From positions 1 through 18,683 of IMG/VR virus record IMGVR_UViG_2675903436_000002: DNA of 18,683 nt. One strand, given 5' to 3'. The notes beneath the pieces were generated by a model. The model saw nothing but the letters and a program-made list of their open reading frames with translations, did no database searches and was not told the origin of the DNA. The position numbers and the translations under genes were made by a program. This DNA comes from a virus. Its lineage: Duplodnaviria; Heunggongvirae; Uroviricota; Caudoviricetes. Shown piece by piece: positions 1,800-2,573 of this stretch (within the stretch, counting starts at the first letter, position 1; every line of letters begins with the position of its first letter).

Positions 1800-2573
1800 A
1801 TGGATATTACTGAGTTTCCTTCTGGAGTAATTGAACACCTTGGCTGGTATGTATACCGATTGATTGATCCGAGGGACGGAAGCACCTTCTATGTAGGGAA
1901 AGGCAAAGGTAACCGCGTATTTGCCCATATGCGCGGTGAAGTGGCAGCGACTGATGATGACGAGTTACTGAGCAACAAGCTAAAGCAAATTAGAGAAATA
2001 AGGTTAGCAGGACTTGAAGTTATCCATGTCATCCATCGACACGGAATGACTGATGAAAAGACGGCGTACGAAGTTGAAGCAGCACTTATTGATGCCTACC
2101 CTGGGTTAACGAATATCATGAATGGTGCTGGCAGCAATGAATTCGGCGCCGCGCATGTCAAAGAGTTGATAGCAACATATCAGCCCGAAACCATAACATT
2201 TCATCATAAAGCATTAATGATATCCGTTAACAGAAGTGCAAAGGATTCAGAGCTTTATGATGCGGTTCGATTTAGCTGGCGCATTAATGTCTCTCGCGCC
2301 AGCCAAGCAGAAATCATTCTTGCTACTGTAAGGGGGATCGTTCGAGGGGTTTTCATTGCTGATAAATGGCTCAAATCAACACGTGAAAATTTCCCTTCGT
2401 TGAAATACTGGGACGAGGATCCTGACTTTGAGGCAACACAAAGTTCGCGCTATGGTTTTGAAGGTCGAGAAGCCCCACCTGAAATAGCAAATCTTTATCT
2501 TGGAAAAAAAATACCAGATGAATTAAGAAAAAAAGGAGCTATGTCCCCGGTCCGTTACTCACCTAATTTTTGA
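1800..2573 (+). CDS. GIY-YIG nuclease-domain protein with uncharacterised C-terminal domain
   Basis: N-terminus [29 protein letters not shown] has the GIY-(10-11 aa)-YIG spacing with downstream Arg/His seen in the UvrC N-terminus and I-TevI catalytic domain. The remaining about 150 aa match no family I can name. Weak RBS. Followed by a hairpin plus T-run terminator. Coordinates taken from the ORF track (see caveat in summary). Confidence 0.55.

Follow-up and report, generated by a model that had tools for sequence, protein, structure and literature searches.

An intact copy of the PD-T4-3 (CMoRE) restriction enzyme gene at the end of a defective lambdoid prophage in the proA-thrW region

The DNA analysed in this work, hereafter the window, is a stretch of 18,683 nucleotides from the proA-thrW region and contains a defective lambdoid prophage (Table 1). 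The integrase gene and the intact thrW tRNA gene mark one end of this prophage and a gene for a GIY-YIG nuclease occupies the other, with the gene of an AraC-family regulator and an IS fragment on its left and tail-fibre genes running towards it from the right, a layout that agrees with the original prediction for this locus. Within the 1103-aa fusion protein Pfam detected TMP_2 (aa 1-145) and Peptidase_S74 (aa 960-1011), and the terminase large subunit, encoded just upstream of the tail-fibre fusion (both within window 2826-6538, minus strand), is truncated to 131 aa. Head and tail genes are deleted, so that the prophage is cryptic, while the defence gene stays intact. The tail-fibre-assembly (tfa) remnant is homologous to intact tfa genes in strains 203740 and B-1109. 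A candidate E. coli small RNA family, Rfam IS009, matched positions 2686-2886 (minus strand) over the full model with 81.5 bits, its gathering score being 117; the match extends from the tfa remnant into the 3' end of the tail-fibre ORF, so that conservation of tfa coding sequence may be all that this family reflects. At relaxed threshold, this sub-threshold match and spurious matches on a tRNA-Ser fragment were all that Rfam returned. Between the lysis and the Q-region genes, the translations of 8082-8423 and 10215-11312 (plus strand) point to a Bor-like lipoprotein and an OmpC/NmpC-like porin, a gene pair that resembles the moron set of DLP12-type prophages.

Table 1. Coordinates of the features at and around the nuclease gene in the window, with the basis of each assignment.
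Feature	Position	Strand	Basis or remark
IS3-type transposase fragment, left of the AraC gene	1-186		
AraC-family regulator	228-980	-	Pfam HTH_AraC/HTH_18
Transplanted DNA of the yodB-serU intergenic region, with the 3' 66 nt of tRNA-Ser(CGA) at its end	1277-1620	-	97% identical to the K-12 serU locus
Conserved upstream region, presumed to carry the promoter	1621-1799	+	travels with the gene
PD-T4-3/CMoRE coding sequence	1800-2573	+	ATG start, 257 aa plus stop; ORF list
N-terminal part of the gene	1800-2138	+	
Acidic run D52 D53 D54 E55 in the autoinhibitory loop that separates helices 2 and 3	1953-1964	+	sequence; role of the loop from the 4A mutant (PMC12923530)
C-terminal modification-sensing domain, aa 121-257, includes Y127	2160-2570	+	
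Hairpin plus T-run, terminates plus-strand transcription by orientation	2593-2641	+	folding: -27.3 kcal/mol, z=-4.9
Tail-fibre-assembly (tfa) remnant, convergent with the nuclease gene	2643-2777	-	RefSeq annotation of the 99.4%-identical EC21Z-078
Tape-measure fragment joined in frame to a tail fibre whose C-terminus is an S74 chaperone	2826-6137	-	Pfam, 1103-aa ORF
Prophage integrase, other prophage end	16062-17225	+	ORF list
Intact thrW tRNA-Thr(CGU)	17240-17315	-	ARAGORN

The nuclease gene was detected at 95% nucleotide identity or more in 838 of 5426 complete E. coli genomes (about 15%), nearly always as a single copy, and several complete genomes carry it with 100% nucleotide identity. 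The same slot was looked for in related thrW prophages and was found. In strain EC21Z-078 positions 1-5342 of the window are conserved at 99.4% identity, and beyond this point a different, more complete prophage follows. In O157:H7 TW14359 the gene (WP_000355475.1, the allele crystallised by Liu et al.) is located at the far end of a degraded thrW prophage. It is bordered on one side by the AraC gene and the IS fragment also seen in the window and on the other by a pinE invertible tail-fibre segment, and the integrase and thrW are arranged as in the window. The two prophages therefore share the slot and differ in the backbone beside it, which in the window consists of the tfa remnant and the S74 tail fibre. 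Directly adjoining the AraC/nuclease block, O157:H7 has a P4-like satellite (locus L003, 75-12472, and L002, 1-9867; primase-helicase, Icd-like, Psu and ogr/Delta-like genes), and by its integrase the genes of an 'ABC-three component system', together with an AAA ATPase, constitute a second defence hotspot that abuts the nuclease slot.

The neighbours of the gene vary among contexts: the AraC gene accompanies it in the copies of the thrW region (loci L001-L003), a Dcm methyltransferase gene takes that position in strain 203740 (L004), and the right neighbour is either tfa or pinE. The AraC regulator was considered as an obligate partner and rejected, as the gene occurs without it in strain 203740. 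A PADLOC scan of eight neighbouring ORFs, the AraC gene included, revealed no further defence genes. The variable neighbourhood and the lack of a PADLOC match for AraC argue for a single-component system, and the expectation of a single-gene anti-phage nuclease in a variable slot past the tail-fibre genes was borne out by PADLOC and by these neighbours. In strain 203740 (L004, 1157-6972) tfa is followed by the nuclease gene, by the gene of the Dcm-type DNA cytosine methyltransferase and by an EcoRII-like restriction gene that IS100 interrupts, and homology to the window begins inside the tRNA fragment. This set represents a small defence cluster at a lambdoid prophage end. A Dcm-type methylase next to a nuclease dependent on hydroxymethyl-cytosine (hmC) is a compatible pairing, since CMoRE, the enzyme with which the gene product is identified below, ignores 5-methylcytosine (5mC).

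The DNA immediately to the left of the gene (positions 1277-1620) derives from the chromosomal yodB-serU region, not from a thrW attachment site; the same 344-bp block is present in O157:H7. No direct repeat of the thrW 3' end (at least 11 nt) was found elsewhere in the window, so that the distal thrW attachment site is gone or degenerate. The tRNA-Ser(CGA) fragment (around 1554-1619), in which ARAGORN called no tRNA and whose T-loop is mutated, was compared with the serU sequence and with the intact copy in B-1109 (L005). The block from 1277 to 1620 looks like the relic of an attR junction, left by a prophage that integrates at serU and moved by recombination between prophages. In strain B-1109 (L005, 6140-6580) the genuine serU locus is occupied by a lambdoid prophage with tfa and the same hairpin and T-run; the nuclease gene is absent, and a 297-bp non-coding spacer separates tfa from the tRNA fragment, which makes this prophage an example of the empty slot. 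The simplest reading of these arrangements would be that the gene forms a cassette some 1 kb long (window around 1617-2593) between the tfa terminator and the attR of serU-integrating lambdoid phages, and that the copy in the thrW region arrived by recombination which carried the serU junction along. Read in this way, the context records movement of the gene, as a cassette at the end of lambdoid prophages, here still accompanied by a serU junction within the thrW region.

The roughly 180 bp upstream of the gene are conserved with a mean column identity of 96% across five genomic contexts, among them the O157:H7 allele and one context with a different left neighbour. A consensus scan for plus-strand promoters upstream of the gene gave none at threshold; by reading the sequence, a candidate weak sigma-70 match may be proposed, with TTGTGA at 1737-1742, a spacer of 17 nt and TAATAT at 1760-1765. 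Upstream of position 1800 no obvious Shine-Dalgarno sequence occurs, and the ribosome-binding site looks weak. On the 3' side, the hairpin at 2593-2641 was missed by a simple terminator scan, the loop and stem rules of which skip irregular hairpins. The original prediction had credited the gene with its own terminator: the structure is real, but it is also found downstream of tfa in the prophage of B-1109, and its presence in a prophage that lacks the gene indicates that it is an element of the prophage backbone used by the gene, not a part of the cassette.

The 257-aa reading frame with a GIY-YIG signature that had been predicted at this position was confirmed by the ORF list and by a match above the curated cut-off to the LEM-3-like GIY-YIG family of Pfam (PF22945, aa 28-110, E=2.2e-14); the classical family PF01541 scored weakly. 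The RefSeq entry for the identical protein (WP_000355482.1) is named 'LEM-3-like GIY-YIG domain-containing protein'. Over its full length the protein matches PHROG 5356 and the PADLOC profile for PD-T4-3 (PDLC04031; residues 1-256 against profile positions 1-255/256, E=7.6e-140, 462.8 bits); an NCBIfam scan assigned the protein to no family. A PDB sequence search returned two proteins, both deposited as 'GIY-YIG domain-containing protein', namely those of O157:H7 (9U75/9U8D; residues 1-257 colinear, E=5.1e-171) and APEC O1 (9U7U/9U7Z; colinear over all 257 residues, E=1.6e-150). In the fold-search library these entries are titled '5hmC specific restriction endonuclease E. coli O157:H7 / APEC O1 PD-T4-3'. 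Counted by residue, the window protein is 97.3% identical to the former protein and 85.2% to the latter. The seven substitutions relative to 9U75 (T51A, E55D, Q169K, I172V, N197H, S200T and L201M, window residue first) are conservative; they all avoid the invariant columns of the family alignment, and at three of them the window protein has the APEC O1 residue. With very high confidence, we identify 1800-2573 as an intact gene for PD-T4-3, a single-protein restriction enzyme directed against the hydroxymethyl-cytosine DNA of T4-like phages, for which Liu et al. (Nat Commun 2026, PMC12923530) introduced the name CMoRE.

The gene had been regarded in the original prediction as an orphan and uncharacterised. 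It is in fact a known and named gene, the mechanism of which has been dissected and the product of which has been crystallised as a 97%-identical allele; biochemistry, structures and native-host deletions are published, so that the lead of a novel defence gene is removed and a type IV restriction enzyme with crystal structures takes its place. The accompanying statement that the C-terminal half matches nothing holds for the domain libraries Pfam and NCBIfam, in which no model covers aa ~120-257, but not for the PADLOC PD-T4-3 profile or PDB 9U75, both of which extend over this half.

The window protein shares with the crystallised O157:H7 and APEC O1 enzymes its length, its motif, the acidic loop, the interface residues, Y127 and a colinear two-domain architecture, with the GIY-YIG nuclease at the N-terminus and the modification sensor at the C-terminus. 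CMoRE is distinguished by a GIYxY-YIG motif (Y17, Y19, Y31) (PMC12923530), which in the window protein reads GWY17VY19RL...FY31VGKG and has its three tyrosines in both crystallised proteins. All residues named by Liu et al. are retained (Y17, Y19, Y31, R80, V92, L96, Y127 and a four-residue acidic run), and Y17, Y19, Y31, R39, R80, V92, L96 and Y127 are identical in the three proteins, V92 and L96 being the residues of the predicted tetramer interface that are needed for activity. A family alignment of 44 members, with identity down to 55% and drawn from 6548 clusters with E≤1e-5, revealed Y17, Y19, Y31, R39, E93, N105 and Y127 as invariant. From general knowledge of GIY-YIG enzymes, R39 and E93 are taken by us to be the catalytic arginine and glutamate. 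The text of the structural paper (PMC12923530) gives no residue numbers for this pair. The acidic run at D52-E55 reads DDDD in the O157:H7 protein and DDDE in the APEC O1 and window proteins. Two of the seven substitutions, at T51 and E55, fall in the autoinhibitory loop and could in principle shift its stringency; E55, however, is the state found in APEC O1.

PD-T4-3 was discovered by functional selection of E. coli DNA against phage T4 (Vassallo et al. 2022, PMC9519451), the main text of which mentions only 'a GIY-YIG nuclease' and does not use the name PD-T4-3; strain ECOR68 is the source of the original gene according to PMC12923530. In the work of Liu et al. (PMC12923530), CMoRE provided about 5-log protection against T2, T4 and T6. 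Cells with the O157:H7 allele grew normally at MOI>1, which indicates a direct, non-abortive defence, and the same behaviour is reported there for the original PD-T4-3 of ECOR68. Eight minutes after infection T4 DNA was depleted and host DNA reads were unaltered. The enzyme binds and cleaves DNA containing 5-hydroxymethyl-cytosine (5hmC) or its glucosylated form (5ghmC), not DNA with cytosine or 5mC; two modified cytosines are required, the cut (CN11/N9G) leaves 2-nt 3' overhangs, and function depends on tetrameric assembly. [quoted passage not shown] Mutation of the 15-residue acidic loop (4A) confers activity on ordinary DNA and renders the protein toxic. The O157:H7 allele is active from its native promoter and the APEC O1 allele gives weak defence from its own, which indicates that alleles differ in expression (PMC12923530).

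The family was also explored in native hosts and in distant bacteria. In the clinical isolate NILS69, deletion of the native PD-T4-3 sensitised the strain to two phages, LF73_P1 and LF73_P3, and the system cloned in K-12 protected against four Tevenvirinae phages (David et al., 10.1101/2024.12.20.629700). A homologue from Capnocytophaga degrades T4 DNA, not the unmodified DNA of T4-GT7 (Rodriguez-Rodriguez et al. 2025, PMC12366544). This PD-T4-3Capno belongs to the same family as a modification-dependent nuclease whose active-site residues are needed for defence; its identity to the original PD-T4-3 is reported as only 48%, and Mu DNA, which contains carbamoylmethyl-adenine, is also cut when the enzyme concentration is high (PMC12366544).

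Extrapolating from the near-identical O157:H7 protein, the window protein would form a dimer-of-dimers tetramer, the C-terminal domains of which would bind 5-hydroxymethyl-cytosine or glucosyl-hmC DNA, two modified cytosines about 21 bp apart being required. The N-terminal GIY-YIG domain would then cut between these cytosines (CN11/N9G) with Mg2+ or Mn2+, leaving 2-nt 3' overhangs, and a lid of four acidic residues on the active site would exclude ordinary host DNA. Incoming T-even phage DNA would be degraded and the cell would survive, which amounts to direct immunity and not abortive infection. By analogy with the solved protein, the window allele is probably expressed, with the same activity and specificity.

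The nature of the modification sensor was addressed by fold searches. Liu et al. (PMC12923530) describe the C-terminal domain as a distinct fold for which their sequence and structure searches gave no homologue, and a Pfam scan at E≤1 of the window protein matched no EVE, ASCH, YTH or SRA model, only GIY-YIG models being returned. The domain superposes on the 5hmC-binding domain of 9U75. Leaving such self matches aside, almost all of the nearest folds are modified-base readers of the EVE, YTH and ASCH kinds: the fold search placed YTH (5.2-3.7), the hmC-dependent EVE-HNH enzyme VcaM4I (5.2), ASCH (5.2) and PH1033 (5.1) highest, followed by archaeal McrB N-terminal domains (4.7 and 3.6) and by the SRA-type readers ScoMcrA, UHRF1, AbaSI and MspJI (2.7-2.3). 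In an independent search with Foldseek, YTH, VcaM4I and ASCH ranked next after the CMoRE entries, weakly (E=0.06-0.5, TM 0.4-0.5), and the full-length model gave the same set of EVE, YTH and ASCH neighbours. These scores are too low for membership, and we give an even chance to the proposal that the 5hmC sensor is a highly diverged PUA-like reader of the EVE/YTH/ASCH kind and not a new fold. Were the link confirmed, it would tie CMoRE to the wider PUA-nuclease family and correct a statement in the structural paper. CMoRE would then be the characterised representative of the predicted type IV restriction enzymes that combine GIY-YIG with a PUA-like domain, GIY-YIG-EVE fusions having been catalogued earlier as predicted enzymes of this type (Bell et al. 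2020, PMC7641849). The type IV enzymes of the PUA superfamily (EVE-HNH VcaM4I, 6YEX; the SRA-type PvuRts1I/AbaSI and MspJI; the predicted GIY-YIG-EVE fusions) likewise combine a modified-base reader with a nuclease and are specific for hmC/ghmC.

A gene that looks intact may still be silent or inactive, a relic in a decaying prophage that contributes nothing to its present host. The heavy deletion of this prophage, with its truncated terminase and its tape-measure/tail-fibre fusion, would fit such a state, as would the failure to find a consensus promoter upstream of the gene and the observation that most predicted defence systems of NILS69 are inactive in that host (10.1101/2024.12.20.629700). 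We consider it improbable nonetheless: several unrelated isolates share the full-length ORF at 100% identity, and at 95% identity or more it is widespread without signs of decay; no functional residue has been lost, conservation with active alleles extends to the upstream region, and PD-T4-3 is one of only two systems that do act in NILS69 (10.1101/2024.12.20.629700).

A free-standing, selfish homing endonuclease, which would cut genomes that lack the gene at a specific sequence and spread by repair-mediated copying, had also been raised for this locus. The catalytic fold of CMoRE and its active-site set of Tyr/Arg/Glu/Asn are indeed common to I-TevI homing endonucleases and to UvrC, T4 EndoII and SLX1; a GIY-YIG catalytic domain is present in the window protein, PHROG 314 'homing endonuclease' gave a weak match (E=0.0022), and full-length homologues in jumbo phages are labelled 'putative homing nuclease', although such phage annotations are unverified labels. 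CMoRE differs from those enzymes, however, by an extra tyrosine (GIYxY), the 15-residue acidic insert and a modification reader in place of modules that bind DNA by sequence or structure. Its C-terminal half is not a DNA-binding module of the I-TevI type and superposes on the 5hmC-binding domain of 9U75; no C-terminal sequence-specific DNA-binding modules were found in the window protein, and the location of the gene, a moron slot where the prophage ends, is neither inside a conserved target gene nor next to one. The published cleavage is modification-dependent and largely sequence-independent, with depletion of the whole T4 genome under the CN11/N9G rule alone, and the host genome was untouched (PMC12923530). 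Homing is in consequence a most unlikely function for this protein. Equally hard to credit is an abortive-infection effector, also suggested at first, that is, a nuclease unleashed on infection to kill or arrest the host cell and stop phage spread: many single-gene prophage nucleases work in this way and the toxic 4A mutant, which cuts ordinary DNA, betrays a latent self-toxicity of the protein, but cells with the near-identical O157:H7 allele, like those with the ECOR68 original, grow normally at MOI>1, and T4 DNA, not host DNA, is lost within 8 min of infection (PMC12923530). Direct restriction of modified phage DNA, as by PD-T4-3/CMoRE, is retained as the probable function of the gene.

The jumbo-phage homologues deserve a separate comment. 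Lytic phages of 250-285 kb, among them Serratia phage Moabite (6406-7161), Klebsiella phage N1M2 and Pseudomonas phage OBP, encode full-length homologues with 37-45% identity and both domains, annotated as homing nucleases. [quoted passage not shown] If the sensor of CMoRE is PUA-like, they would be weapons against rival hmC-containing phages and not homing nucleases.
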